From assembly GCA_001803045.1 (NCBI GenBank), contig MHAR01000090.1, positions 3,498-67,497 on the forward strand: a DNA stretch of 64,000 nt, given 5' to 3'. Positions within the stretch are counted from its first letter, which is position 1; each line of letters starts with the position of its first letter. The translations under genes and the position numbers were made by a program. Below the pieces are notes generated by a model. That model was given only the letters and a program-made list of their open reading frames with translations, was not told the DNA's origin and searched no databases. Source of the DNA: Ignavibacteria bacterium RIFOXYB12_FULL_35_14. GTDB lineage: Bacteria > Bacteroidota > Ignavibacteria > Ignavibacteriales > Ignavibacteriaceae. Shown here piece by piece: positions 3,525 through 53,691 of this stretch.

Positions 3525-4406
3525 ATGTCAAACCCTTCTCACTTGAGAGCAACGCTGCAGGCGTTATTAGTTACATTCCTATGGTCAACATCATTTGTAA
3601 TTATTAAGTTGGGTCTGGAAGAAATTCCGCCATTAACATTTGCCGGTTTACGCTATGTGATAGCTTTCATTTGTCTTCTGCCTTTTACTTTCACGAAAAA
3701 GAAGATCGGCGCTATAAAAAATATTGAAAAGCGCGATTGGCTTAGACTAATTTATCTGGGTATAATGTTTATAACAATTACTCAGGGAGCCCAATTTATA
3801 GGTCTTTCGCTTCTCCCTGCTGTTACGGTAAGTCTTTTGCTGAATTTTACACCTGTAATTGTAGCGGTGCTTGGAATTTACCTTCTCGCAGAAAAACCTG
3901 GTTTGGTGCAATGGACCGGCATTGCTTTGTTCATTACCGGAATCCTGATTTACTTTTTCCCGGTTTTTCTCTCAGCTTATCAAGGTTTAGGAATTATTGT
4001 AATGCTTATCGGTGTTGCAGCAAATGCAGGCTCTGCAATTCTAGGAAGAGGTATTAACCGTGAAGCTAAATTATCTCCACTGGTGGTTACGGTTGTTAGT
4101 ATGGGAATAGGTTCTATGCTGCTTCTTGTAATAGGAATACTTACGCAAGGTTTACCTTCCATAAACCTTAAAAACATGTTTTATTTATTATGGCTTTCTG
4201 CTGTTAATACCGCTTTTGCTTTTACACTCTGGAATTCAACGCTTCGTTCATTAAGAGCTATGGAATCAAGTATAATCAACAGTACGATGCTTATTCAAAT
4301 CGCGGTTCTTGCATGGATATTTATTGGTGAACCGATAACCTGGAAAGAAGGCTTGGGAATGATTATTGCCGGAATCGGTGCGGTAGTTGTACACATTAGA
4401 AAATGA
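3525..4406 (+). CDS. EamA/DMT superfamily transporter
   Basis: About 10 predicted TM helices in a duplicated EamA-like layout. Confidence 0.8.
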   Translation: MSNPSHLRATLQALLVTFLWSTSFVIIKLGLEEIPPLTFAGLRYVIAFICLLPFTFTKKKIGAIKNIEKRDWLRLIYLGIMFITITQGAQFIGLSLLPAVTVSLLLNFTPVIVAVLGIYLLAEKPGLVQWTGIALFITGILIYFFPVFLSAYQGLGIIVMLIGVAANAGSAILGRGINREAKLSPLVVTVVSMGIGSMLLLVIGILTQGLPSINLKNMFYLLWLSAVNTAFAFTLWNSTLRSLRAMESSIINSTMLIQIAVLAWIFIGEPITWKEGLGMIIAGIGAVVVHIRK

Positions 4407-33558: not shown

Positions 33559-35184
33559 TTAAAGGGTTTTAGTGTAATCATCAATTAGATAATCGTACTT
33601 TCCAACATTAAAATTCCAAATTTCTTTTAGGCGATTTAACTCCCACAAATCACCTTTAATTATAATAGATAGTCTCTCATAATATTTTGCCAAACTTGGA
33701 TGAGCTATTTTATTATCTCCAGTCTTTAGTGTTTCCAGATATCCTTCCGGAATCTTACGGGCAAAATGTCCGATTCTCCAAAATTTTTCATTCCTTGGTT
33801 TGTCCTTTCCTATTAGCCAATATTCAGTTGAGGGAAGTCTTGCAAGTAGTGGTTCAGTTAATGCATATTGATCTATGATATGCACATTATTCTCAGCATA
33901 AAAGCCAAACATTCCAATAGTTGGTTTTACAACAAAATTATTCTTTACTTCTTTGACTGCATAAGCATGCTTAATCCATGGATGTTGTTCAACTTTATTT
34001 TCAGAGAGATTATTTAACAGACCCGTGTTTTCGTAATACCAAAATCGTTCATCGGTTATACCTTCATTCATTCCGCTTATCATTGGACCAAATCTAAACG
34101 CATGAATTATTTTCGGACCTAAACTATATTGTTGTGTGCTAAATAAATTTGGCCGGGGAGAGAGCAAACCCAATCCAATAATTATAACTGCAGATACTAT
34201 CGCTAGCTTAATAGATTTGATTTCTATTTTTGAAAATATAATCACTGCACAAAGCAACGGAACGGAAAGAAATCTACCACTCATAAAATCACCGCCGATA
34301 TTTATGATGTAAACAATATAAAATATTATTCCTGCAGTTAGTGGTAATAATTTTTTGTTTTTTAGGATAAGGGAGATAATTATTCCGGTAATCATGACAA
34401 GAATGGTCAGTGGGTCTAAATAAAGAGAATCGAGTAGATAAAGCAATCCTTGTCGTAACAATTCAATTTGGCTTATACCGGTATTTAGTTTTGCGTAAGC
34501 CGTATTGGGGAAAAAAAATCCATAATAAAAGAGCGAAAACAATTCCCAGAGAAGTAAGGGAGAAAAACCTATTAGGATAATTGAAAGATTTTTAAGCTTA
34601 TCCTTTTCTTTTAAATAGATAATTACTAAAGCAGGCAAAAAAATTATGAGAATATCCAATCTGTTTAGGACTGCAAGACAAAAAAGAAATGAAAGCAGGA
34701 ATAATTTCTTCTTGCCATCTGCGCTACGGAAATAAACTATAAAAAATAACACAATGAGTAAGTGTGCGAGCGGATTTTCTAATCCTGAAGTAGAATAATC
34801 AACAAATGCTTTTGAGAATACCAATATTAAGGCTGCAATTATTGAATTAAGCGGAGCGATAGAAATCTTTTCCAGGAGAAGAAAAAAAGCTAATAGTGAA
34901 ATACCAATTGAAATAGTAATGCTTGTAAAATAAAATTCATTTGTTAAAACATAAAGTCCTGAGATAAGAAACATCCAAAGCGGATGAGTGTAAGCTTGAA
35001 CTCTTTCACCAATATTCCATGTTAAGCCGAAACCATTTATAAAATTATCTATGCTTCGGAAGGTAATATATGCATCGTCTGAGAGCCAAGCAGTTATAAA
35101 GACTATAATCAGATATAAGAATATTAATGGAACGTACATCCATTTAATTTGAAGATATTTTTGTTCATTTAATATCACAGTCAA
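33559..35184 (-). CDS. GT-C fold polytopic membrane glycosyltransferase
   Basis: At least 10 TM helices, with a DDAYITFR motif in the first extracytoplasmic loop (the DD/DxD hallmark of GT-C enzymes) and a soluble C-terminal domain. Confidence 0.6.
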   Translation of the reverse strand: MTVILNEQKYLQIKWMYVPLIFLYLIIVFITAWLSDDAYITFRSIDNFINGFGLTWNIGERVQAYTHPLWMFLISGLYVLTNEFYFTSITISIGISLLAFFLLLEKISIAPLNSIIAALILVFSKAFVDYSTSGLENPLAHLLIVLFFIVYFRSADGKKKLFLLSFLFCLAVLNRLDILIIFLPALVIIYLKEKDKLKNLSIILIGFSPLLLWELFSLFYYGFFFPNTAYAKLNTGISQIELLRQGLLYLLDSLYLDPLTILVMITGIIISLILKNKKLLPLTAGIIFYIVYIINIGGDFMSGRFLSVPLLCAVIIFSKIEIKSIKLAIVSAVIIIGLGLLSPRPNLFSTQQYSLGPKIIHAFRFGPMISGMNEGITDERFWYYENTGLLNNLSENKVEQHPWIKHAYAVKEVKNNFVVKPTIGMFGFYAENNVHIIDQYALTEPLLARLPSTEYWLIGKDKPRNEKFWRIGHFARKIPEGYLETLKTGDNKIAHPSLAKYYERLSIIIKGDLWELNRLKEIWNFNVGKYDYLIDDYTKTL

Positions 35185-35619
35185 AATCTTTTTAATTTAT
35201 CAAAACAATAATAAAGCCAGTAGATTCGCCTTGTAAAAAAATATCGGAGCTGTTTCAGATTAAATTAGCCTAAATGGTAGAAAATTTACTCATAGGTGTT
35301 TTCCATCAAATTAGCTCCCATAGGGACAGGCATAAAATTTTCGCATACACATTTTACGGCTGCGATTTTTAAATACAACAAATCTCATATGTAACATTAT
35401 TACTTAAGCATTCATTGAAATTGTAAAATTTACTTTGAAAAAGTTAAGTTTTGAGTAAAACTTTCCGAGATTCGCCCATAGGTAAACCTTACATCCTTAT
35501 CACAAAAGGTGTATTCGGTAATTTCGAACCGCATCGAACATATTACTTGTAAAAGTTTCAAAGGTTTAGTTCTTTTATAAAAATCTATCAATCAGAATTA
35601 AAATCACAATTATTTCCGG

Positions 35620-35635
35620 TGGCACATTTTTTTCT
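35620..35635 (+). promoter_or_regulatory. candidate sigma-54 promoter (TGGCAC-N5-TTTC)
   Basis: TGGCACatttttTTC lies about 45 nt upstream of the pilin-like gene 1 start. The -12 GC is replaced by TC. Confidence 0.3.
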
Positions 35636-35679
35636 GGACTCTTTACGAATGTTTTCAGAAATAATGTATAGAATGAAAC

Positions 35680-36063
35680 TTGGGTCAGCAGCAATTATTA
35701 TTAATTCTTCTTGGGATCGTAGTTATTGCAATAGCAGTAGCTATAGGCATAAGCTTGTTCAGGGCTCATGCGATATCCTCAAAACGGGATATACTAACAA
35801 ATGAAACGATTGATATGGCAGCACAAGCAATTGGCTATTACAAAAGAGCAAGAGAATTTGGCGGAGGAGGTAAGTCATTTATTGGCTGGCAAATTCCTCC
35901 TCAATTACAAAACACGGTTAATGGCTCATACGTTATTGATGCAATTAATAAAGATGAAGTGGTGATAATTGCAACAGGAACTGAAGTGGTAACCGGGAGC
36001 GATTCAATACAGGTTAAAACGACAGTTTACTCGGATAACTATCAAATAGAAGTAATTCACTAA
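35680..36063 (+). CDS. type IV pilin-like protein 1 (atypical, TTG start, no leader)
   Basis: (M)GQQQLLLILLGIVVIAIAVAIGISLF hydrophobic N-terminus, GGGG run, 127 aa. An in-frame TGA lies two codons upstream. No clear SD, so it may be weakly expressed. Confidence 0.5.
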   Translation: MGQQQLLLILLGIVVIAIAVAIGISLFRAHAISSKRDILTNETIDMAAQAIGYYKRAREFGGGGKSFIGWQIPPQLQNTVNGSYVIDAINKDEVVIIATGTEVVTGSDSIQVKTTVYSDNYQIEVIH

Positions 36064-36129
36064 TTAACAGAATGGATAAAATTTTAATCCATCTTATAAC
36101 TAACAATAAACTAAAATAGGAGATCTAAA

Positions 36130-36510
36130 ATGGGTCAACAGCAGCTTCTTTTAATCGTGCTCGGCGTTATCGTAGTAGGTATCGCAGTAGTTGTGGGTAT
36201 CAACTTGTTTAATGCTAACGCAGTTTCTTCAAACAGAGACGGAGTAGTTTCTGATTTGAATAACTTAGGTGCAATGGGGCAACAGTACTACAAGAAACCA
36301 ACTTCAATGGGAGGCGGCGGAAACACATTCACTGGCTGGACGCTTCCTGCAGAATTAGATACAACTGCAAACGGAAATTATGTACTGACAGTAAATGCAC
36401 AGTCACTTACAATTGAAGGATACGGAACTGAACTAGCGCCTAACGGAAGCAAGATAAACCACACAGCCACAGTGGGACCGTCCTCAATAACAGTGGTAAA
36501 AACTAACTAA
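36130..36510 (+). CDS. type IV pilin-like protein 2 (atypical, no prepilin leader)
   Basis: AGGAG SD, then ATG. In-frame TAA at 36112-36114. MGQQQLLLIVLGVIVVGIAVVVGINLF, followed by an amphipathic segment and a Thr/Asn/Gly-rich C-terminal half. 126 aa. Confidence 0.65.
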   Translation: MGQQQLLLIVLGVIVVGIAVVVGINLFNANAVSSNRDGVVSDLNNLGAMGQQYYKKPTSMGGGGNTFTGWTLPAELDTTANGNYVLTVNAQSLTIEGYGTELAPNGSKINHTATVGPSSITVVKTN

Positions 36511-36561
36511 TCACATGATAGTTGGAAAATTAAATTAAATTTAATTTAATAAATTCTTAAG

Positions 36562-36596
36562 GGCTGGTAAAACAAGTTTGTATTATCAGCCTTTTT
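36562..36596 (+). terminator. candidate intrinsic terminator after pilin-like gene 2
   Basis: ggctg...cagcc stem followed by tttttacttttt. The homologous site after pilin 3 (about 37423-37460) has a stem mismatch and an interrupted T-tract. Confidence 0.4.
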
Positions 36597-36614
36597 ACTT
36601 TTTAAAGGTGAAAA

Positions 36615-36744
36615 ATGATTGTAGTCAAATTTGCAATTGAAAAACAAGACCGATAGACCCTAAGCTGCTAGTTATCGGTTTTTTTATTCGGAGAGGGTAG
36701 GAAAAGAAATCAAAAGTATTTGGCAGAAGAGGTAAATCATATAC
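36615..36744 (+). pseudogene. decayed 5' fragment of the pilC-like gene
   Basis: atgattgtagtcaaatttgcaattgaaaaacaagaccgatag aligns to the pilC start at 37475 (atgattgaagtcaaatttacagcagaaaagcaagacgga) but contains stops. Confidence 0.65.
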
Positions 36745-36923
36745 CGGCTGGTAGATTCTAGCACGGATTCGAGTCATAGTGAATAACTTTTACACCAATA
36801 ATAAAATCAATGATGATAAGATGGGGTAATTACAACTGGCACTGAAGTTGTTAGCAGAGATGATGAAATGCAAGTTAAGACAATAGTTTACGCAGATAGT
36901 ATCAGTTGGCAGTAATTTGCTAA
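36745..36923 (+). pseudogene. decayed 3' fragment of a pilin-1-like gene
   Basis: Aligns to 35884-36063 (ggctggtagattc... versus ggctggcaaattcc...; ...actgaagttgttagc versus actgaagtggtaacc) and has in-frame stops. Confidence 0.6.
36837..36852 (+). promoter_or_regulatory. candidate sigma-54 promoter (TGGCAC-N5-TTGT)
   Basis: TGGCACtgaagTTGT lies about 140 nt upstream of pilin-like gene 3, inside the decayed pilin fragment. The homologous site in the intact gene (aggaactgaagtggt) lacks the motif. Confidence 0.35.
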
Positions 36924-36992
36924 TTCATAGAATGGATAAAATTTAAATCCACCAATAACTGGTAATCAATAAGAAAATATAGGAAATCTACA

Positions 36993-37373
36993 ATGGGTCA
37001 ACAGCAGCTTCTCTTAATTGTGCTTGGCGTTATCGTAGTGGGTATCGCAATAGCAATTGGTATTACTTTGTTTAGTGCTAACGCTGTATCTGCAAACAGA
37101 GACGGAGTAGTTTCTGATTTAAATCACTTGGGTGCAATGGCGCAGCAGTTCTACAAAAAACCAACCTCACAGGGCGGCGGTGGAAACGCATTCACAGGCT
37201 GGACACTTCCTGAAGAATTAGATACAACTGCAAACGGAAATTATGTGCTGACCGTAAATGCACAGTCAGTTACAATCCAAGGATATGGAACTGAGTTAGC
37301 GACTAACGGAAGTAAGATAAACCATACAGCAACAGTAGTGCCCTTTGCTGTAACAGTGGCAAAAACTAACTAA
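36993..37373 (+). CDS. type IV pilin-like protein 3 (atypical, no prepilin leader)
   Basis: About 86 percent aa identity to protein 2 by my count. AGGAA, then ATG. In-frame TAA at 36963-36965 with no ATG/GTG/TTG between it and the start. Confidence 0.65.
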   Translation: MGQQQLLLIVLGVIVVGIAIAIGITLFSANAVSANRDGVVSDLNHLGAMAQQFYKKPTSQGGGGNAFTGWTLPEELDTTANGNYVLTVNAQSVTIQGYGTELATNGSKINHTATVVPFAVTVAKTN

Positions 37374-37474
37374 TCAAATGATTGTTAGAAAATTAAATTT
37401 AAACCAGTTTAATAATCTTTTAGGGCCGAAAAACAGTTTGTATTTTCAGCCCCTCTACTTTTTAAAGGTGAAAA

Positions 37475-38848
37475 ATGATTGAAGTCAAATTTACAGCAGA
37501 AAAGCAAGACGGACAGGCAATAAGCGGTTCACTATCGGTTTCCTCTTATGGTGAGGGGAAGAAAAAAATTCAACGTCTTGCCGAGAAAAATCATTTGAAA
37601 ATAAAAGCAATTGAGCGTAAGGTAACCTATCTCTACAAAGCCAGGAAAGGTACAGATAAACCAATTAGGGGCGAACAAAAAGCATATTCAAAAAAAGAGG
37701 TAGATGATGCTTTAACTAGATTGGGTTTTAAAGTTCTGTCCGTCAATCGTAAATTAATTGACTTTCAAAGAAAACCACCAACGGCTGAAATAGTAACTTT
37801 TGTCAAAATCAGTGCAGAACTCTTGGAACAGAAACTTGCTTATGGCGAAATATTATCGCTTCTGATAAATGATACTCAGAACAAAACTCTTAAGGATACA
37901 TTAAAGGAAATTAATAATGATCTAAAAAAGGGTGCTGATAGTGAGGCAACATTCTTGAAGTATCAAAATGTTTTCGGAAAGTTCACTGCTTACATGCTTG
38001 GACTGGCTTCTAAAAGCGGTAACATGTCTGAAATTTATAAAGCCACTGCTAAATTTTTAGAGAGACGACAGGAATTCAAAAAGAGTTTAAGAAGTGCTTT
38101 AATAACTCCAGCAGTTACAATATTTGTCTTATTCTTAGCGGTTGTGTTTTATGTTGGATACATCTTTCCGGAAACAGCTAAACTATTCGTAAAATTTGGA
38201 ATCGAGCTTCCGCCAATGACAGCGTTTACCCTAAAGATGAGTGATTTTCTTACAAGTTATATTTTAATTATCATGGGATTAGCCGCAATACCACCGATTG
38301 TTCTTTGGCAAATGTCGAAAACTAAAAAGGGAGGAATAATTCTTGGGCGGATGATGTTGAAATTGCCTGTAATGGGTTCGCTCATACACAAAACATTAAT
38401 TGAGGTTTTTTGCAGAGTATTTTATACTCTTTACAGCGGTTCGGCTGAGAGTATCGAACCGATTAGAATTGCATCAGAGGCAGCAGGTAATAAATATTTC
38501 GAAGACCGAATAAAAAATGTTGCTATTCCATTAATGCTTAAGAAAGGGACAGGACTTACAGAGGCATTCGAAGCTTCCGGAGTTTTTACAGAAACAGCAC
38601 TATCAAGATTGCATTCAGGCGAAGAAACCGGAACGGTTAAAAACACTTCGCTGCAGCTTGCAAATTATTATGAAAGTGAAACTGTTTACCGTTTGAAAAA
38701 CTTGATTGAAGTGATTCAGGTAGCAATTGCGATGATAATAATGGTTGTAATGATTCTCTTGACATTAGTATCTGCAGAAACGGCTACAGTAAGACCGCCG
38801 ACACCTGGAGCATCAAATCAAATTAATGTTGAAAGAAATATAGGATGA
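37475..38848 (+). CDS. pilC: type IV pilus / T2SS platform protein (PilC/GspF family)
   Basis: Two GspF-type repeats, each ending in a TM pair (…GNMSEIYKATAKFLERRQEFKKSL… and …GEETGTVKNTSLQLANYYESE…). The N-terminal cytoplasmic domain is of the KF.A..QDGQ..SG type. Confidence 0.9.
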   Translation: MIEVKFTAEKQDGQAISGSLSVSSYGEGKKKIQRLAEKNHLKIKAIERKVTYLYKARKGTDKPIRGEQKAYSKKEVDDALTRLGFKVLSVNRKLIDFQRKPPTAEIVTFVKISAELLEQKLAYGEILSLLINDTQNKTLKDTLKEINNDLKKGADSEATFLKYQNVFGKFTAYMLGLASKSGNMSEIYKATAKFLERRQEFKKSLRSALITPAVTIFVLFLAVVFYVGYIFPETAKLFVKFGIELPPMTAFTLKMSDFLTSYILIIMGLAAIPPIVLWQMSKTKKGGIILGRMMLKLPVMGSLIHKTLIEVFCRVFYTLYSGSAESIEPIRIASEAAGNKYFEDRIKNVAIPLMLKKGTGLTEAFEASGVFTETALSRLHSGEETGTVKNTSLQLANYYESETVYRLKNLIEVIQVAIAMIIMVVMILLTLVSAETATVRPPTPGASNQINVERNIG

Positions 38849-40635
38849 TCGAAACCAATCTGGGCATGTCCGATAAAATTGGTTACCTCCTTTTTAAAAA
38901 AGGAATAATCGATACACAAATTCTCGAAAAGTCGCTGAATGTTAAATCGGAAGAGAAGGGGAAAATAAAGCGAAACCTCGCCCAGATATTAGTACAAAAT
39001 TTTGATTTTGATCATGATACAATATTTAAAGAAGTTGCAATACTTTATGCTTTCCGCGAACTTGAATTACCGGAAGGTGAGCCATTACAACATAAAATTG
39101 AAACAATAAAACAAGCGGTTGATAAAGTCAGCGATCAATTAAAACAAATGATGGCTGAGCATAAGGTAATTCCTTATGCTTATGATGAAAGGTTAAGAGA
39201 CAAATTAATTCTCGCAGCAATAGACCCGACCGATCGAAGTATTCCCAAAATAGCTTATGCATTAAATGCCAGGAAATATGAAGTAGTCTTCCTAAAAAAG
39301 AAAGATTTTGATAAAATAAGTCAATCAATACTTCCGGTCGAAAACGTTTACTTAAAAGCAATTGAAGACTCATCAGTGGAAATGGATATTGAAAGCGATG
39401 AAGCGTCTCTTGATGAGCAAGAACTTGATGCCGAAATAAATAAGAGTGCATTAATAAATCTCGTGGAAGGTGCCTTGGTAGAAGGAGTTCGAAAAGATGC
39501 CAGTGATATCCACTTTATACCCAAAGCAGGTCATAAAACCGAAATTCTTATTCGTATAGATGGAAATCTTCAACCATGGCATATCCAGGAAAACACCCTT
39601 CCCGAAGCAGTTGTTGCAGTTATTAAAGATCGTTCAAAAGGAATGGATAGATTTGAAAGAGAAAAAGCACAAGACGGTTTTATCCAGAGAGAGATTGACG
39701 GTCAAATAATAAGATTCAGAGTTTCAGTTCTTCCAATGGTGGGCACTGAATTAAGAAATAAATTTGAAAGCGTAGTAATAAGAATTCTTGATGACCGAAA
39801 GGTTGTTAAAGATTTAAGTAAGCTTGGACTTACGGGCTATGCTCAAGATGCTTTTGTAAAAGCCATCAGTCAGCCGCAAGGAATGGTTATTCTAACAGGA
39901 CCAACTGGAAGCGGTAAGAGTACCACATTAGTTGCAGCACTTTACCAGGTAATTGATCCAAGCGTAAACGTTCTCACCGTAGAAGATCCCGTTGAATATG
40001 TAATTGAAGGTGCCCGTCAGCTTAAAATTGGATACAAGATGGATTTTGAACAGGCAATTAGGTCCATTCTGCGTCATGACCCGGATATTGTTTTGGTGGG
40101 TGAGATGAGAGATAAAGAAACTGCTGAGGTTGCTATAAAGTTGGCAAACACAGGTCACTTGACCTTTTCAACTTTACATACTAATGATGCACCAAGTGCT
40201 GTTGCCAGATTGTATAAAATGGGTATTGAGCCGTTTTTAATTGCGTATGCAATAAACATCATAATGGCACAAAGGTTAGTTCGCAAATTATGCGAAGCTT
40301 GTAAAACAAAGGTTACTAAACTGGATGAGGATTTATTGTCAGCTGCTGGTATAGATATTAATGAATTAAAAAAGCATACAATCTTTGCAGCAAAAGGATG
40401 TGATAAATGTCATGGAACTGGTTACAAAGGTAGAATGGCGATACACGAAGCACTTTATTTCACAAAAGAAATACGACAAATCATCGTGCGCTCAGGTATT
40501 GAAGTCGATGAAGAGAAGATAAGAATTCAAGCTAAAAAAGACGGTTCAAAATCATTAAGAGACTCTGGAATAGAAAAAGTAATGTTGGGTCTTTCCTCGA
40601 TAGAAGAGGTACTTGCTTCAACTACCGACGAGTAG
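38845..40635 (+). CDS. pilB: type IV pilus assembly ATPase (PilB/GspE family)
   Basis: Walker A GPTGSGKST, GEMRD (Walker B/Asp box), TGHLTFSTLHTND His box, tetracysteine CEACK...CDKCHGTGYKGR, and a GSPII_E N-terminal domain. Confidence 0.9.
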   Translation: MIETNLGMSDKIGYLLFKKGIIDTQILEKSLNVKSEEKGKIKRNLAQILVQNFDFDHDTIFKEVAILYAFRELELPEGEPLQHKIETIKQAVDKVSDQLKQMMAEHKVIPYAYDERLRDKLILAAIDPTDRSIPKIAYALNARKYEVVFLKKKDFDKISQSILPVENVYLKAIEDSSVEMDIESDEASLDEQELDAEINKSALINLVEGALVEGVRKDASDIHFIPKAGHKTEILIRIDGNLQPWHIQENTLPEAVVAVIKDRSKGMDRFEREKAQDGFIQREIDGQIIRFRVSVLPMVGTELRNKFESVVIRILDDRKVVKDLSKLGLTGYAQDAFVKAISQPQGMVILTGPTGSGKSTTLVAALYQVIDPSVNVLTVEDPVEYVIEGARQLKIGYKMDFEQAIRSILRHDPDIVLVGEMRDKETAEVAIKLANTGHLTFSTLHTNDAPSAVARLYKMGIEPFLIAYAINIIMAQRLVRKLCEACKTKVTKLDEDLLSAAGIDINELKKHTIFAAKGCDKCHGTGYKGRMAIHEALYFTKEIRQIIVRSGIEVDEEKIRIQAKKDGSKSLRDSGIEKVMLGLSSIEEVLASTTDE

Positions 40636-40730
40636 TATCCCTTTTACTAAGGTAATAATTACTAAGAATTGCTTTCGATTTCGCAATAAATTTATATCAC
40701 TGACTGGAATTTACTTGCATAAAATTTGAT

Positions 40731-42053
40731 TTGAATCCTACGGCACAGATACTTAAAAACAAAATTAAAGGCAATAGTGTGGCAGTCCAAGCTCTAGATC
40801 AAGTTCCTTCGAAAAGGAAAGCAATTCCTGTAGAAGAAGTAAAAAGAGTTCTTTCGGAATTTACTGAAAGCATTCCGGGCGACCTGAGAGGTCCTGATAA
40901 AGTTCTATATCTTTTCGAAAACAGTGTGAAGCTTCCAACCGAGAGCAAAGTACTATTGAAAGAGTACTTTGATCATTTATTAATTAATATGATTGAGCGA
41001 GATGCCTCTGACATTGAAATCGGTGGGCATGGCAACGAGGGGTATATATGGTTTAGGATTTATGGAATTAAAGAAAGAGCAATGGACCTGCCTCGTTTTA
41101 CCGAAGATGAATCTACAATGATCATCATCAATTTATTAAATGCCAACCAAAAGAAATATATATCGGTCGCCAAAAATCTTGATTTCAGTTACTCATGCTA
41201 TTACGAAAGGAAAAAGTTAAACATTCGTTTCAGAGCAGATGCATACTTTGAGCTTGATACTCTTGCCCTAAACATGCGTGCAATCAATTTGAATATAAGG
41301 CCTCTCGACTCACTTGGCTTTCATCCAAACGTTGTAAGAGTAATGAGCCATAGCTACATCAAGTTTGGCTTATCGTTAATAACAGGAATTACCGGTTCGG
41401 GTAAATCGACTACGCTTGATGCGATAATTGATGAGCATAATAAGTGCGATCCGGCACATGTTATTGTTATTGCTTCGCCTATAGAATATGTACATCGTTC
41501 GAACAAATGTATAATTAAACACAGAGAAGTTGGCAGAGATGTCATCTCTTTTAAAGATGGTGTTATTCAAGCGATGAGACAGGATCCGGATATTATAGTA
41601 ATTGGTGAAATGAGAGATCCCGAAACAATTTTAGCAGCACTTGAAGTTACCGATACGGGGCATAAAGTGTTCTCAACTCTCCATACTTCATCTGCGGTTG
41701 AATCAATTGATAGAATTGTTGCTGAGGTTAATCCTCATGAACAGGAGAGAGTAAGACATAGATTGGCTGATGTTTTAGTGTCCATAGTCTCACAAAAATT
41801 GCTTCCGGGTGTAGATGGTAAATTAGTCTTAGCAAAGGAAGTATTGGTAGTTACCCCCAGTGTAAAAGCCGCAATTAAGAACAATACCACAAGTGAAATT
41901 TACCTTATGATAAATCAAGGCGGCCCAATGGGTATGTTGACAATGGAACAAGATTTGAGGCGATTATATCTGAATAAAAAAATATCATTGGAAAATGCCA
42001 TTGCATATGCCAATAATAAAACAAGAATTCAACAACTTTTATCGGCTATCTAA
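40731..42053 (+). CDS. pilT: PilT-like retraction ATPase with ~100-aa N-terminal extension
   Basis: Walker A GITGSGKSTT, IGEMRDPETI, GHKVFSTLHTSSAVESIDRI. It lacks the Zn-binding Cys motif, as PilT/PilU do. TTG start. Confidence 0.8.
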   Translation: MNPTAQILKNKIKGNSVAVQALDQVPSKRKAIPVEEVKRVLSEFTESIPGDLRGPDKVLYLFENSVKLPTESKVLLKEYFDHLLINMIERDASDIEIGGHGNEGYIWFRIYGIKERAMDLPRFTEDESTMIIINLLNANQKKYISVAKNLDFSYSCYYERKKLNIRFRADAYFELDTLALNMRAINLNIRPLDSLGFHPNVVRVMSHSYIKFGLSLITGITGSGKSTTLDAIIDEHNKCDPAHVIVIASPIEYVHRSNKCIIKHREVGRDVISFKDGVIQAMRQDPDIIVIGEMRDPETILAALEVTDTGHKVFSTLHTSSAVESIDRIVAEVNPHEQERVRHRLADVLVSIVSQKLLPGVDGKLVLAKEVLVVTPSVKAAIKNNTTSEIYLMINQGGPMGMLTMEQDLRRLYLNKKISLENAIAYANNKTRIQQLLSAI

Positions 42054-43600
42054 TGAAACCTATTGTATGTGTATTTTGCGAAGGCAATGACACAAAAATT
42101 GCTGTCGTAGAAAAAGAAAAAGAAAAAATTAGAGTCCTCATAACTGGTTCGTATAATGTGATTCAACCTCCCGTTGTGGTAACCGAAGGTATTACAAATC
42201 TTAGAGTTGATACTGACGATCTTTCTTTTGAAGATTTGGATAAAGCATCTCCTATTACTGATGTAGAAGTGGTTAGCACTTCTGGTTTAGCATTAATAAG
42301 TACATCTCTCAAAGGAATTAATCTGAATAACAGCGTATTTATTCCGATTCTTACCGAACCAGTGCTTCATTACCATGTTTATGAGGGAAGTAAATTAGGC
42401 AAATCATCAAAATTCACTCAAGAGCTTATTAGAGATATTTATGAAACCAAGAACATAACAGTAAGCAAAGATGAATTAGCGTTTGTTGAACTTGCTGATA
42501 AATCTTCTCTGGCTGTTTTTCTTAACGGAGAAATAAGCTGTGTTAAATTGATAAACTCTCTTGCCGGATATAACGGTAAAAAGTTTTACAAAATACCAAC
42601 AATTAAAAGTGCTGAAATATCACTTGCAAATTATGTTGCTAAGAAAAAGAAATTTTTCCCCGATGATCAATCTCTTATTGTATATATCGGTAAAGAGTAT
42701 AGCAAGCTTATCTTTTTACAAGGAAGAAAATTAAAGCACATTGGTACAACGCTTGATATTGGTACCACAAACCTACACACTTACGATGTTTACTTCTCCA
42801 AAATTTTACTTGAAATGGATAATGGCGGTATAACATCACTTGATAATATAATTGTTTGCGGTGAAGATGATTCTGAAAATTTAATTCTTTCTTTTTATGG
42901 TACCTTTCCCGAAGCCAATGTTTCTAGATTAGAATTTGATGAGATAGATTATTCATTATTGAGCACCGAAGCTCAAACCTCAATTTCTGCATACAGCATA
43001 ATGCTGGCTATAGCAAATGAATACTTCGACGATCAAGTACAAAAACACTCGGAGAGTATAAACCTTTTACCAAGATATGTTAAAGAAGAACAGAAGGTAT
43101 TTCAGTTTGCATGGCACGGTTATGCTATTCTTCCATTATTATTTGGAGCAACTTTCTTTTTAACACTTCAGATACTGATGAACAATAAAAAGGTTAATGA
43201 ATTAGAAAAAGAAATTGCACAGCAAACGGTATTGCTTAGGCAGAATCAGGAAATACTTGGGCGTATTGCAGCCCTTGAAAGCAAGATAAGCGGATTTGGT
43301 CAAACTCAGGCAATATTAGATTCTGCATCCGTTGGAACTGGTGTTTGGTCAAAAGTAACAGAACATTTTTCTGATTTCTTTGGAGCTAAACAAAATATTT
43401 GGCTTACAAAGGCAGGTGCAGATGGGAATAACATAGCTCTGGAAGGTTTCACATTATCAAAGCTATCGCCAACAGAATTTGCATACTCAATCGATGGTTC
43501 GGAATTGAAAGGAATTTATTTCGAATCGATTCGTGAGAAAAACGCTTATCGTTTTAACCTAAATTTTAATCTATCACAATTTCCCAAAGTGACACAATGA
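42053..43600 (+). CDS. PilM-PilN fusion-like alignment protein
   Basis: The N-terminal ~340 aa has actin-like segments (VYIGKEYSKLIFL...LDIGTTNL). It is followed by the INLLPRY motif, a TM helix and a coiled coil, which is the PilN hallmark. Confidence 0.6.
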   Translation: MKPIVCVFCEGNDTKIAVVEKEKEKIRVLITGSYNVIQPPVVVTEGITNLRVDTDDLSFEDLDKASPITDVEVVSTSGLALISTSLKGINLNNSVFIPILTEPVLHYHVYEGSKLGKSSKFTQELIRDIYETKNITVSKDELAFVELADKSSLAVFLNGEISCVKLINSLAGYNGKKFYKIPTIKSAEISLANYVAKKKKFFPDDQSLIVYIGKEYSKLIFLQGRKLKHIGTTLDIGTTNLHTYDVYFSKILLEMDNGGITSLDNIIVCGEDDSENLILSFYGTFPEANVSRLEFDEIDYSLLSTEAQTSISAYSIMLAIANEYFDDQVQKHSESINLLPRYVKEEQKVFQFAWHGYAILPLLFGATFFLTLQILMNNKKVNELEKEIAQQTVLLRQNQEILGRIAALESKISGFGQTQAILDSASVGTGVWSKVTEHFSDFFGAKQNIWLTKAGADGNNIALEGFTLSKLSPTEFAYSIDGSELKGIYFESIREKNAYRFNLNFNLSQFPKVTQ

Positions 43601-44490
43601 ACAGGAAACTAAAAAATACGTTTGCTCTTGCAGGGCTGTTGTTATTTATTTTGATAGCCGGTGGAGTATATATTTTAATTTTACAACGCGGTGAATTGTC
43701 CGCTAAAGAAGAAAAACTAAGAGAATTAAAGGCAAATGATTATAACACAGAGCAATTAACTCTTCAATATGAAGATCTTTACCAAAGATCTGTAGTTCTC
43801 GATTCAGTACTTGCAGCTAGAAAATTTAATATTCCACAAAATCTATCTTCCATAAAATTTTATGATTTCGTAACTCGGTTAACTAATTTACTAACTGAAG
43901 ATACAAAGATTGATGTTGAATATGGAGAACAAAAACAAGAGCGAGATTTTTATTACTACGAGTATAAAGTTAAAGGTATAGCCCCTTACAACGATCTATA
44001 CAAATTCATTTATGGAATTGAACAAAGCAAAGAGCTTAAGAAAATTACATCGATCACTCTAGGAAGTCTTGTTAAAAATGAAAAAGAGGAAGGTCCGAAA
44101 TTCCTTGTTGCTTTTGCGTTCGTTGTTCATGTTTATTTTTCGAACGATAATCGTTTTGCCACAGCAGAGTTTGTAGAAAACAACCTATCAGCGCGCCCTT
44201 TGTATGATGCATTCTATCCATTACTTAGAAACGAAATTCCTTTAAATACCGAAGGTCTACTTGATATTCAGGGTGCAAAACTTCTGGCACTTGTACCTGA
44301 AGGTGCATTTCTAGCGGACGCAACTGGCAGTACATTCTTACTGTGGGAAGGTGAACCAGTTTACCTTGGGTATTTGACCAGCATCGATTATAAAAATAAT
44401 AAGGTGAAGTTTATTATTAACAGGGGCGGTGTAATCGAAAAAGTAGAGTTGTTTTTGGAAAAAGAAGAAGCAAATAAGAAAAATAAATGA
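43597..44490 (+). CDS. PilO-like protein with PilP-like C-terminal beta domain (possible fusion)
   Basis: N-terminal TM helix plus coiled coil (PilO layout). The C-terminal LLALVPEGAFLADATGSTFLLWEGEPVYLGYLTSIDYKNNKVKFII resembles the PilP/GspC HR-type beta-sandwich. Confidence 0.45.
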   Translation: MNRKLKNTFALAGLLLFILIAGGVYILILQRGELSAKEEKLRELKANDYNTEQLTLQYEDLYQRSVVLDSVLAARKFNIPQNLSSIKFYDFVTRLTNLLTEDTKIDVEYGEQKQERDFYYYEYKVKGIAPYNDLYKFIYGIEQSKELKKITSITLGSLVKNEKEEGPKFLVAFAFVVHVYFSNDNRFATAEFVENNLSARPLYDAFYPLLRNEIPLNTEGLLDIQGAKLLALVPEGAFLADATGSTFLLWEGEPVYLGYLTSIDYKNNKVKFIINRGGVIEKVELFLEKEEANKKNK

Positions 44491-45734
44491 GAGTAGAAAT
44501 TATGAAAACAGTAATATTATCATTGGTGTTGTTTTCGTTTGTCACTGTAACTGGATTATCTCAGCAATACCTTGAAAGGCAATTCAAGGGTTATATAAAT
44601 CCAGATGAGTTAGTTACTATGTCCGCAAATCTGCCATTTGACCAAGCAGTTGATCTCCTAAGCAAGGTTAGCGAGAGCTTGAGAGGAAAAAGGATAGTAT
44701 CAACCTACCAAAGCTCGGAACCAATCGGGTTAGAAATCGAGAACATGCAATATGAAAAGGCATTGGTTGTTTTGGTTCAGTATCGTGGATTAATGTATGA
44801 AGAAAAAGAAGATGTAGTCATTATTAAAAAGAGGGGCGAGAAAATAGATAATAGAACAGCCGAAAATTATGTCTCTGTTGATTCGCGAGAAGTAAAAATT
44901 TCAGCTGTATTCTTTGAAATGGATGTTAATGAGGCGCGGAAACGTGGGGTAGATTGGAAACTAATTTTTGAAAAGAAGGGATTAGACATAGGCGGACTTT
45001 TAGGTGTAGATAAAACCAAGACTCAAAGTCAAGGAACAAGCACTTTGCAAGAACCAACTTTTGATCTGGGCGTAGCCGGCGATTTTAATATAGGTAATTT
45101 CTTCGGTGAAGCCACGGCAATATTTAAGTTTTTTGAAACTGAAAATATAGGAGAAGTAATTGCAAGTCCTACGATAGTTGTTCGAGATGGTCGCCCGGGA
45201 AGAATTCAGGTTGGTTCGGATATATCTATTAAGCAAAAAGATTTTGCGGGAAACGTTATCGAGAATTTTTTCTCAACCGGTACAATCATTAATGTAACAC
45301 CTTATGTAATCAATGAAGAGGGTGTGGACTATACCCTCTTAAAAATTATTGCCGAAAGAAGCACCTTCGTGCCCGATCCATCTAATACTATAATCAATAA
45401 AACCCAAGCTTCTACGGAAGTTATTATGCTTAATGGTGAAGAAACTGTGATAGGTGGATTATTTGTAAATGATGAGGTAAAAATACGTTCAGGTGTCCCG
45501 ATTCTTAAAGATCTTCCGTGGTATGTATTAGGACTTAGGTATATCTTTGGTTCAGATGAGGTTCGGTTAAGTAAAAAAGAACTTGTAATTCTTCTTAAAG
45601 CAGAACTTGTTCCAGCATTGAAAGATCGCTTAGCCGGCACAAGCTCTACTACTCCTGTTCGTGATGAAGTTTTAAAACAGAGAGAAAAATTAAAAATGTA
45701 TCAATTCAATCAACAATTTGGTAACGGGAATTAG
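44487..45734 (+). CDS. secretin (short PilQ/GspD family)
   Basis: The C-terminal secretin core reads VIASPTIVVRDGRPGRIQVG...TEVIMLNGEETVIGGL...SGVPILKDLPWYVLGLRYIFG. The signal peptide begins at the internal MKTVILSL, so an alternative start at 44502 is possible. Confidence 0.8.
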   Translation: MRVEIMKTVILSLVLFSFVTVTGLSQQYLERQFKGYINPDELVTMSANLPFDQAVDLLSKVSESLRGKRIVSTYQSSEPIGLEIENMQYEKALVVLVQYRGLMYEEKEDVVIIKKRGEKIDNRTAENYVSVDSREVKISAVFFEMDVNEARKRGVDWKLIFEKKGLDIGGLLGVDKTKTQSQGTSTLQEPTFDLGVAGDFNIGNFFGEATAIFKFFETENIGEVIASPTIVVRDGRPGRIQVGSDISIKQKDFAGNVIENFFSTGTIINVTPYVINEEGVDYTLLKIIAERSTFVPDPSNTIINKTQASTEVIMLNGEETVIGGLFVNDEVKIRSGVPILKDLPWYVLGLRYIFGSDEVRLSKKELVILLKAELVPALKDRLAGTSSTTPVRDEVLKQREKLKMYQFNQQFGNGN

Positions 45735-52320: not shown

Positions 52321-53691
52321 TTAGTCTTGCCTGATCTCGTATTTTTTAATTTTTGTATAAAGTGTTTTAGGACTGATGCCAAGCTGGTTAGCTGTCTGAG
52401 TTCTATCCCACTTGTTAAGTTTAAGAATTTTTGCGATATGATGCTTTTCCATCTCGTCCATACTAAGTATTTCAGCTATGCGAATATTCTCTTCATTCAT
52501 TAGCGGCTGTGATGCCCTTGCGGTTGCACTTACAGGAAGATTGAGGTCGTCCGGTTCAATTAGTTCGCCTTCCGAGAAAATTATTGCCCGCTCAATTGTG
52601 TGTTCAAGCTCGCGGACATTGCCGGGAAAATTATAATTCAGAAGAGTCAATTCGGATTTTGGCGAAAGATTTTTTGGCGATCTTATTGGTGATTTTGCTT
52701 CAAGAAAAAATTTAGCAAGTACCGGTATATCATCTCTTCGATCTCTTAGCGGAGGAATTGTTAGCGTTATAACATTCAAGCGGAAGAGTAAATCACGTCT
52801 AAAATTTTTATTATCAGCTTCTTCTAAAAGATTTCTGTTCGTTGCCCCAATTACTCTAACATTAGAATTGAGATTTGCAACTCCACCGATCCTTCTGTAT
52901 TCACCATTCTCAAGAAAGCGTAAAAGTTTGGGTTGAAGCGATAAGCTCATTTCACCAATTTCATCTAAGAATAAAGTGCCGCCATTGGCTATCTCTACTA
53001 AACCTTGTTTTGTATTTTTTGCATCTGTAAAGGCTCCGCGCTCATGTCCGAAAAGTTCGCTTTCAATTAATTGATCGGGAAGCGAGGCACAGTTGATTAC
53101 AACAAATGGTTTGTCTGCACGGGTGGAATGTTTATGGATATATTCGGCAAAAAGCTCTTTACCGGTACCGGTTTCTCCTTCAATAAGAATGTTTGAATCG
53201 GACATAGCGGCTTTACTGGCAAGATTAATAATTCTTTGAAGCTGCGGGCTATCGCCTACAATGTTATGAGGAAGTTTTTTATTTACAATATCTGTGAGAA
53301 CAGTATTCTTAACTAAAAGAGATTTATGATCTGCCGCATTATTTATTGTCACCAGCAATTCGTCAAAATCGTAAGGTTTAGTAATGTAATCATAGGCACC
53401 CATTTTTATGCAATCTATAGCTTTGCGAATTTCATTTTGTGCTGTGAGGATAACAACAATTAAAGACGGGTTATAATCATTTACAAACTTTAGAACTTCT
53501 TCTCCGGGAACTTCCTGCATATTCAAATCAAGAAGAAGCATATCATAATTTTTACGTTTAATTGCTTCTATAGCGTATTTACCGTCATAAACGGTATCAA
53601 CCGAGAAACCCTCTTCAAGAAGCTGTTCCTTCAGAAGATAGCTTAGGGTTTCATCATCATCACAGACTAAAATTTTTGAATTTTTAGACAT
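52321..53691 (-). CDS. sigma-54-dependent response regulator (NtrC/PilR-type enhancer-binding protein)
   Basis: REC domain, AAA+ core with GETGTGKE, the sigma-54 contact loop variant GAFTDA, an ESELFGHE-type segment and a C-terminal Fis-type HTH ([20 protein letters not shown]). Confidence 0.9.

Follow-up and report, generated by a model that had tools for sequence, protein, structure and literature searches.

An old, out-of-register tandem duplication in an Ignavibacteriaceae type IV filament locus: gene conversion, repeated loss of a pilin gene and a possible promoter in a dead pilin fragment

Tandem pilin paralogues are known from Pseudomonas stutzeri (pilAI/pilAII), Synechocystis (pilA1/pilA2) and Kingella kingae (pilA1/pilA2). 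In the type IV pilus locus of Legionella pneumophila, the genes pilA1 and pilA2 are likewise tandem major-pilin paralogues (PMC13170364). We analysed a related arrangement in a stretch of 64,000 nucleotides (hereafter the window) from Ignavibacteria bacterium RIFOXYB12_FULL_35_14, contig MHAR01000090.1. Its type IV filament locus contains three pilin genes, pilin 1, pilin 2 and pilin 3, and a tandem duplication gave rise to the third. As in the tandem pilA systems, adjacent, related and complete pilin genes lie beside the assembly genes. There, the main subunit usually comes from one paralogue, and the other has a modulatory role or can be dispensed with. Unlike them, the repeated unit here is out of register with the genes, and its passenger fragments record the event, its age, and the later conversion and loss. 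The pilins also differ in being non-canonical. They have no class III signal peptide, and the genome has no A24 peptidase.

Two other systems share part of this organization. In Neisseria pilE/pilS (PMC13321361), truncated pilin copies also lie near an expressed pilin, and transfer between pilin copies is also non-reciprocal. However, conversion in the window connects two complete genes of the expressed type, and it homogenises rather than diversifies them. The truncated copy here has decayed and carries stops. It gives no sign of being a donor, and no dedicated initiation element is evident. The lpl cluster of Staphylococcus aureus (PMC2568036) presents a unit out of phase with its genes (3' end of gene A, spacer, gene B, 5' end of gene C) and a copy number changed by unequal recombination, as here. 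In contrast to lpl, the window has a single extra unit, and the genes that flank it are not paralogous. For this reason, its junction rests on a chance microhomology of 12 nt and not on homologous recombination. Tandem pilin paralogues, out-of-register units and interlocus conversion are known kinds of event. The added hypothesis is that of a promoter born in a pseudogene fragment.

We propose the following history as the best explanation and give it, as a whole, a probability of roughly 0.75. The ancestral operon in this Ignavibacteriaceae genus would have consisted of a sigma-54 promoter, pilin 1, pilin 2, a terminator and pilC. In a single unequal recombination, an A-rich 12-mer at pilC codon ~33 paired with its look-alike at codon ~55 of pilin 1, which produced a head-to-tail duplication of ~860 bp. 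This added pilin 3 and two passengers, pilC' and pilin-1', which later acquired stops. Pilin 3 next became a lineage of its own, with a signature in the N-terminal helix and under purifying selection. Recurrent conversion from pilin 2 homogenised parts of it, so that pilin 3 of the window's genome is pilin-2-like from about codon 30 on. Several lineages deleted pilin 3 independently, to the point of polymorphism within a species. Finally, a few substitutions in the dead pilin-1' fragment would have made a -24/-12 element of the sigma-54 type, almost invariant even where pilin 3 is missing. Pilin 3 would have been born promoterless, behind a strong terminator, and its promoter would have evolved in the dead fragment. 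The same promoter might also drive pilC-pilB-pilT, by read-through of the weakened terminator B or, in lineages that deleted pilin 3, directly.

Since the out-of-register unit left markers, the sequence records the whole life history of a duplicate, from its birth at a 12-nt microhomology through paralogue divergence, recurrent conversion and repeated loss to the probable recruitment of a dead fragment as a promoter. Recurrent conversion makes the copies look younger, which is a warning against dating paralogues by identity alone. The case also bears on the regulation of an unusual Ignavibacteriota pilus, with a pilin-like fold, no prepilin signal and no prepilin peptidase encoded. If the promoter reading is true, the lasting product of the duplication would be a regulatory module and not an extra pilin.

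The locus (35620-45734) is co-directional and opens with a conserved sigma-54-type motif. The motif is followed by pilin 1, pilin 2, pilin 3, PilC/GspF, PilB/GspE and a PilT-like ATPase. Two proteins without a family match and a secretin lie 3' of the ATPase, and two-component genes farther downstream. Unless stated otherwise, all features are on the forward strand. Pilin 1 (35680-36063) has 127 amino acids, a TTG start and the beginning MGQQQLLL. It is ~40% identical to pilin 2 (36130-36510, 126 amino acids), which has a strong AGGAG ribosome-binding site and is probably the major subunit. Pilin 3 (36993-37373) also has 126 amino acids and is a chimera of pilin-3-type and pilin-2-like parts. 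The platform gene pilC/GspF follows at 37475-38848 (PF00482, E = 3e-28; GspF/PilC NCBIfam matches).

When 35600-36760 was aligned locally to 36600-37700, only one match emerged, a collinear one that pairs 35842-36714 with 36702-37574. Along the repeat, identity per block of 100 columns is 65, 72, 76, 84, 87, 90, 82, 82 and 59%. It amounts to 59-72% in the truncated gene pieces, 76-82% in the spacers and 84-90% in the pilin genes. The repeat search found spacings of 860 and 863 bp. Blastn of the region against identical public contigs aligned the copies at 78.3% identity across 871 bp (E = 0). Copy A (35842-36713) consists of the 3' part of pilin 1 (codons ~55-127), a palindrome, pilin 2, terminator A and the pilC' fragment. 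Copy B (36702-37574) consists of the pilin-1' fragment, a copy of the palindrome, pilin 3, terminator B and the first ~33 codons of the real pilC.

The initial annotation, made by eye, had proposed a tandem duplication of ~860 bp, and the collinear alignment, the spacing and the overall identity of ~78% bear it out. The order of parts that it described (3' part of pilin 1, palindrome, pilin, hairpin and 5' part of pilC) was recovered in both copies, with a pilin of 126 aa and ~33 codons of pilC in each. Direct reading also agrees with truncated pilC and pilin-1 passengers that lie between pilin 2 and pilin 3 and carry stops. The pilC' pseudo-fragment (36615-36713) represents pilC codons 1-33, with an ATG at 36615 and a TAG at codon 14, and aligns to 37460-37573. 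The pilin-1' pseudo-fragment (36714-36923) represents codons ~59-127 with stops, and reads ...GGC TGG TAG... near its start. The pairwise alignment that had been suggested as a check shows that the fragments do match their parents and are more diverged than the pilin genes.

Both marks of a tandem segmental duplication were found: collinear head-to-tail copies and a novel junction flanked by truncated genes. In separate local alignments to each parent, the pilC-derived part stops at 36713, and the pilin-1-derived part starts at 36702. The two ends overlap in 12 A-rich nucleotides (36702-36713, AAAAGAAATCAA) that resemble both parents. The event thus fused pilC codon ~33 with codon ~55 of pilin 1 through a chance microhomology rich in A. 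The junction had previously been placed at 36744/36745. This position has to be corrected by ~30-40 nt upstream, and the segment 36714-36744, taken for pilC, is the GGGGKSF part of pilin 1.

The source is a metagenome-assembled genome (MAG) of the Ignavibacteriaceae, of 4.1 Mb in 95 contigs and 100% complete. Assemblies of this species exist from more than 20 public samples. A collapsed or mis-joined repeat has to be considered in a MAG with so many contigs, and scaffolding did produce an artefact at the pilC gene of a related MAG (G005). However, the region 35300-38000 is 100% identical in two independent assemblies (NCBI MAG and Joint Genome Institute metagenome), so the repeat is not an assembly artefact. 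The same layout is also present in three other lineages, and the copies, only ~78% identical, could not be confused by an assembler. The probability of an artefact is negligible. The head-to-tail duplication of ~860 bp, out of register with the genes, is confirmed as real. It gave a third pilin gene and two truncated passengers.

Comparison with relatives bears on the age of the event. Here, G000 is the genome of the window, G001-G005 are other genomes, and L-numbers are loci or contigs of relatives. The three-gene layout recurs in G001, L176 and L177, where collinearity with the window extends beyond 2.6 kb and takes in the fragments. G004, G005, L093, L173, L174/L175 and L178 have pilin 1 and pilin 2 only, without pilin 3. 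In these two-gene lineages, the spacers between pilin 2 and pilC (~350-600 bp) retain terminator A, the junction block and a pilin-1' relic. Fragments or relics of pilin-1' occur in G001, G004, G005, L093, L173, L175, L176, L177 and L178. In L099, the pilC' fragment survives and shares the window's TAG at codon 14. In more distant relatives (L094-096, L098, L103, L017 and L019), pilin 1 and pilin 2 are followed by a terminator and pilC, without a relic. Because the three-gene layout is shared and relics persist in two-gene lineages, the duplication must have occurred once, before the genus radiated. As judged from these loci, it is shown to be old and to predate that radiation.

At least six related lineages have lost pilin 3 by deletion, and at least five distinct end points are recognisable among these deletions. 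In G004, the deletion starts just after the sigma-54-type motif, and the fragment is largely gone. G005 lost most of the pilin-3 open reading frame (ORF). L093 lost pilin 3 together with terminator B, and pilC' separately. In L173 and L174/175, the equivalent of window 36900-37390 is gone. In L178, a 138-bp inverted-repeat element stands in place of pilin 3. The last case is close to L177, which has pilin 3: their flanks are 97% identical, and their pilin 2 proteins are identical. Hence, pilin 3 is a presence/absence polymorphism at roughly the species level. Pilin copy number varies among relatives, between three-gene and two-gene lineages, as a comparison proposed by the initial annotation was meant to reveal. 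By this record of independent losses in several lineages, pilin 3 is dispensable.

The ratio of non-synonymous to synonymous substitution rates (dN/dS) between pilin 2 and pilin 3 of the window, a check also named in the initial annotation, is 0.17. Among pilin-3 orthologues, it is 0.12-0.20. These values support purifying selection on both complete pilins, as read from their codons. Pilin 3 of G001, L176 and L177 forms a clade with support 100/100. Its signature lies mostly in the N-terminal helix, at residues ~13-51 (...IGIAIVIGITLFS..., RDAVV, LG-KA-Q). Pilin 3 of the window carries this signature only at residues ~20-28, and the rest is pilin-2-like.

The distribution of private sites follows the same division. 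Those private to pilin 3 of G000 and G001 fall in nt 27-178, and those private to pilin 2 and pilin 3 of G000 fall in nt 186-352. The two classes, with 7 and 5 sites, segregate perfectly. In the tree of the 5' partition (nt 1-185), the four pilin-3 genes are on one side of a branch (support 62/79). In that of the 3' partition (nt 186-378), pilin 3 of G000 joins pilin 2 of G000 and L175 (support 91/89). The 3' partition rejects monophyly of pilin 3 in the approximately unbiased (AU) test (p = 0.008, or p = 0.027 with fewer taxa), although these p-values are optimistic because the break point was picked after seeing the site pattern. Sites and trees show the window's pilin 3 as a chimera, with a 3' part overwritten by its neighbour pilin 2 through gene conversion. 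The two copies also have genome-specific residues in common: L84 and L102 in G000, Q74 in L176 and L74 in L177. This sharing points to conversion having recurred in several lineages. The 84% amino acid identity of the window's pilin 2 and pilin 3 mainly reflects conversion of the 3' part and is no measure of the age of the duplication. Dating by synonymous distance (dS) was dropped, given that pilin 2 and pilin 3 of L176 differ by dS 0.42 though the duplication predates that species.

Another reading builds on the initial annotation. It holds that the duplication was fairly recent, that selection preserves both pilins, and that differences on the C-terminal surface reflect antigenic or functional diversification. 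In its favour, pilin 2 and pilin 3 are 84% identical (86% had been given) with a low dN/dS, while the fragments are only 59-72% identical to their parents. Moreover, the C-terminal half is variable among orthologues, with dN/dS of 0.3-0.44 versus 0.01-0.1. However, a recent event is contradicted by the same junction and fragments in other species, by relics in species without pilin 3, and by the 3' part of the window's pilin 3, which nests in the pilin-2 clade of the closest relatives. The claimed C-terminal clustering was not found either. The 20 differences between pilin 2 and pilin 3 are evenly spread, 10 in residues 1-60 and 10 in residues 61-126, and dN is 0.088 in the N-terminal part versus 0.071 in the C-terminal part. 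The change from GPSSI to VPFAV is the only small cluster in the C-terminal half. Regarding selection for both paralogues, the part that stands is purifying selection. The simple argument from intact genes beside decayed fragments does not, as the duplication is old, conversion has occurred, and pilin 3 was lost repeatedly. We regard this alternative as improbable and retain an old duplication with later conversion.

The truncated pilin-1 copy could, in principle, be a silent donor cassette like pilS, used for programmed variation of pilin 1. It is a promoterless, 5'-truncated pilin copy beside expressed pilin genes, in a locus where conversion occurs. Nevertheless, stops interrupt it, and its identity to pilin 1 is only 53-72%. 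Between species, its identity is ~52% except in two short blocks, a level that resembles neutral decay. The 3' halves of pilin 1 are well conserved between species (dN/dS ~0.1) and present no mosaicism, and G004 has lost most of the fragment. A donor cassette is thus very improbable. The two short blocks lead to the other part of the proposed history, the recruitment of the fragment as a promoter. The passengers had been described as decaying. Their stops agree with this, but decay is not complete, because these two blocks of pilin-1' are conserved across species.

Pilin promoters dependent on RpoN and PilR are known for pilA of Pseudomonas aeruginosa, Myxococcus xanthus and Geobacter. The sigma-54 consensus has the register TGGCAC-N5-TTGCW, with GG at -24 and GC at -12. 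The locus resembles these systems in having a motif of the -24/-12 type a few tens of nucleotides 5' of pilin genes. It also resembles them in that rpoN and an activator of the NtrC family are encoded, the activator beside the pilus locus. The rpoN gene was recognised by Sigma54_DBD at G000:C85 (198 bits), and the activator (52321-53691) has Sigma54_activat, REC and HTH_8 domains. The first motif (TGGCACATTTTTTTCT, 35620-35635) lies 44 nt 5' of pilin 1 and reads TGGCAC-ATTTT-TTTCT. In 6 congeneric sequences, it is conserved as TGGCACATT(T/A)TTTTCT between variable flanks. Similar motifs occur 43-80 nt 5' of pilin genes in ~35 other Ignavibacteriota loci.

The second motif departs from the known promoters. 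It lies inside a dead coding fragment, it has TTGT and not TTGC at -12, and it is 140 nt from the gene that it may serve, pilin 3. This motif (TGGCACTGAAGTTGTT, 36837-36852, within pilin-1') has 15 of its 16 columns invariant, as TGGCA(C/T)TGAAGTTGTT, in G000, G001, G004, G005 and L093 (permutation p < 1e-5). The background in this five-species fragment alignment, from the junction to the end of the common relic, is ~20% invariant columns and ~52% pairwise identity. L173, L176, L177 and L178 have the identical 16-mer, and L175 reads TGGCACTGAAATTGTG. In total, the motif of the dead fragment is present in 10 lineages, six of them without pilin 3. In outgroups that lack the duplication, the spacer from pilin 2 to pilC has no such motif.

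In all species, the functional pilin 1 uses AGGAACTGAAGTGGTA for the same GTEVV peptide. Compared with pilin 1, the fixed changes in pilin-1' are GGA to GGC and GTG GTA to GTT GTT, exactly those that create the motif. Since these differences are fixed, conversion from pilin 1 cannot explain the conservation of the motif. A promoter at this place would drive pilin 3, as this gene stands behind the strong terminator A. If it serves pilin 3 and/or the assembly genes, its survival where pilin 3 was deleted would be explained. In L093, the motif is 122 nt from pilC with no terminator between them. Considering conservation and position, the motif was probably exapted as a promoter that serves pilin 3, pilC or both.

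The other conserved block of the dead fragment, GGTAAATCAT-N~9-(C/T)GGTAGATTC (36731-36758), lies ~104 nt 5' of the -24 element. It is conserved in the 5 aligned species, with constant spacing to the motif, and is a candidate activator site. As an activator half-site, GGTARAT has 20 matches in the window versus 18 expected, which is not significant alone. A fuller claim is that three or four point changes turned the dead pilin fragment into a sigma-54 promoter with an activator site ~104 nt upstream, which controls pilin 3 and/or pilC-pilB-pilT and outlived pilin 3. We hold the arguments for and against this claim to be evenly balanced.

The conserved blocks might instead be the site of another regulator, a small RNA or an element of a 5' untranslated region, or might result from occasional conversion from pilin 1. 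The GT in the -12 element, the terminator-like hairpin between the motif and pilC in G000 and G004, and the absence of a significant motif of its own in block 36731-36758 are compatible with these options. On the other hand, the conserved 16-mer fits TGGCAC-N5-TTG exactly in register, and the same class of motif is found 5' of pilin genes across the phylum. Rfam gives no match at this place, and conversion from pilin 1 would not leave the very differences that create the motif. We consider these options unlikely when taken together, though still deserving attention, and prefer the promoter. TTGT variants of the -12 element also occur 37-40 nt 5' of other ORFs in the window's genome and 5' of pilins in the phylum.

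Besides the break point chosen after the fact, some observations weigh against the proposed history. At 36837-36852, the sequence reads TGGCAC-TGAAG-TTGTT, with GT in the -12 element instead of the canonical GC. The pilC' relic is unrecognisable in G004 and G005, and beyond the conserved blocks, their decayed spacers align only with uncertainty. Strong codon bias distorts the synonymous distances. With pilin dS on a plateau of 0.4-1.3 and pilC saturated, dS cannot date the duplication or the conversion.

Other candidate elements were found around the two motifs. Upstream of the pilin-1 motif (35420-35600), 5 species present strongly conserved blocks: TTCGGTAAAT near -105, similar to the (C/T)GGTAGAT block of the dead fragment, and CGAACATATTACTTGTAAAAGTTTCA from about -85 to -60. 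These blocks are candidate activator or integration host factor sites. A scan with the sigma-70 consensus returned 13 sites versus 7.6 expected. One of them, TTGGCA-16-TAGAAT (36906-36933) 5' of pilin 3, was rejected because neither G001 nor L093 conserves its -35 element.

Terminator A (36559-36606) has a 12-bp stem followed by UUUUUACUUUUU (-17.5 kcal/mol, z = -4.2) and is kept in all relatives, also in those without the duplication. Terminator B (37423-37465) is a weakened copy, with a C-A mismatch in the stem and a poorer U tail (-11.6 kcal/mol, z = -1.7). Both hairpins were folded directly, as their long loops escape a simple terminator scan. The palindrome ATGGAT-N9-ATCCAT lies between pilin 1 and pilin 2 (36072-36092). 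The initial annotation had placed the same palindrome in both copies of the repeat. It is present at 36072-36092, but the copy at 36932-36952 has one arm mutated. Its stem sequence is kept in 10 congeners, with a loop of 8-10 nt and variable sequence, and G004 has a different palindrome at the equivalent site. The predicted RNA fold is weak (-4.9 kcal/mol, z = -2.1). The stem is conserved and does not covary, and the variable loop length mildly favours a hairpin over a protein-binding site. Rfam on 35100-37700 gave only a chance match below threshold (RF02841, 26 bits versus a cut-off of 115).

The term pilin is used here in the sense of fold and genomic context only, partly from a predicted structure. 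The family has no sequence match in Pfam, NCBIfam or PDB, including the N-methylation models of Pfam and NCBIfam. A PDB profile search with the pilin alignment gave nothing significant, and its best pilin-like match was the N-terminal domain of a Geobacter pilin (E = 1.3). The database search returned 5147 hits for the family, nearly all from Ignavibacteriota; a few bins bear the label of another phylum, such as Calditrichaeota. Cultured relatives with the family include Stygiobacter electus, Melioribacter roseus and Ignavibacterium album. Directly 3' of the pilin genes are T2SSF, T2SSE (two copies) and Secretin, and the family adjoins pilC/pilB in dozens of loci, where this linkage to the machinery recurs. 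The AlphaFold2 model of pilin 2 was built with 73 homologues and has a predicted confidence (pLDDT) of 86. It agrees with the lollipop fold of type IV pilins (a helix of ~50 residues, hydrophobic in its first half, on a small antiparallel sheet), with an N-terminal helix of 53 residues (3-55) packed on a sheet of four strands. Its best fold match in PDB is the full-length Pseudomonas PAK pilin 1oqw, with a template modelling (TM) score of 0.64 and probability 0.90, although the Foldseek E-value is 0.35.

The class III signal peptide of type IV pilins has a short basic leader, with Gly at -1 and Glu at +5, and is the target of the prepilin peptidase. The pilin-like proteins of the window have no such peptide. 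They begin MGQQQLLLIVLG (MGQQQLLL), and an in-frame stop lies 5 codons 5' of the ATG. In the 100%-complete genome, no Peptidase_A24 (PF01478) was found. The domain is also missing from 37 of 41 relatives, among them all 6 genomes of the genus, and the pilin family is present in 36 of the 41. This suggests that the pilin-like protein is a type IV filament subunit independent of the peptidase, which perhaps needs only the removal of the initial methionine. Neither this duplication nor MGQQQ pilins were found described in our literature search.

The divergent neighbour of pilin 1 (33559-35184, reverse strand) encodes a polytopic membrane protein of 541 amino acids, and its position is kept in relatives. 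The Pfam scan of this protein gave no match. Its orthologues have a weak precomputed match to AftB_C (arabinofuranosyltransferase-like), and the protein is a candidate pilin glycosyltransferase.

Some minor observations concern the relatives. Pilin 3 of G001 (L013) has lost the AGGA ribosome-binding site and the palindrome copy upstream of the gene (~3840-3868). It has a very long branch (0.37-0.57 substitutions per site) and is still open, with dN/dS ~0.18. This gene may be weakly expressed or on its way out. In L008 (G005:C7), the scaffolding artefact at the start of pilC consists of 100 N beside an exact 55-bp duplicate (k-mer overlap), and it mimics a 5' fragment of pilC. The 138-bp element of L178 (L178:1682-1819) is bounded by the inverted repeat AGAGATGACATCTTT...AAAGATGTCATCTCT. 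The window's genome has 20 occurrences of this terminal repeat, most of them paired around 3 to ~340 nt of variable sequence (e.g. C30:1406-1512, C50:20983-21082 and C94:2448-2545). It looks like a family of palindromic repeats similar to miniature inverted-repeat transposable elements or repetitive extragenic palindromes. Finally, independent tandem duplications of pilin-2-type genes, with other boundaries, are present in other Ignavibacteriota (L015:2265-3497, L026, L126 and L076). The duplicates of L015, L026 and L126 are recent (98-100% amino acid identity), and that of L076 is older (75%).

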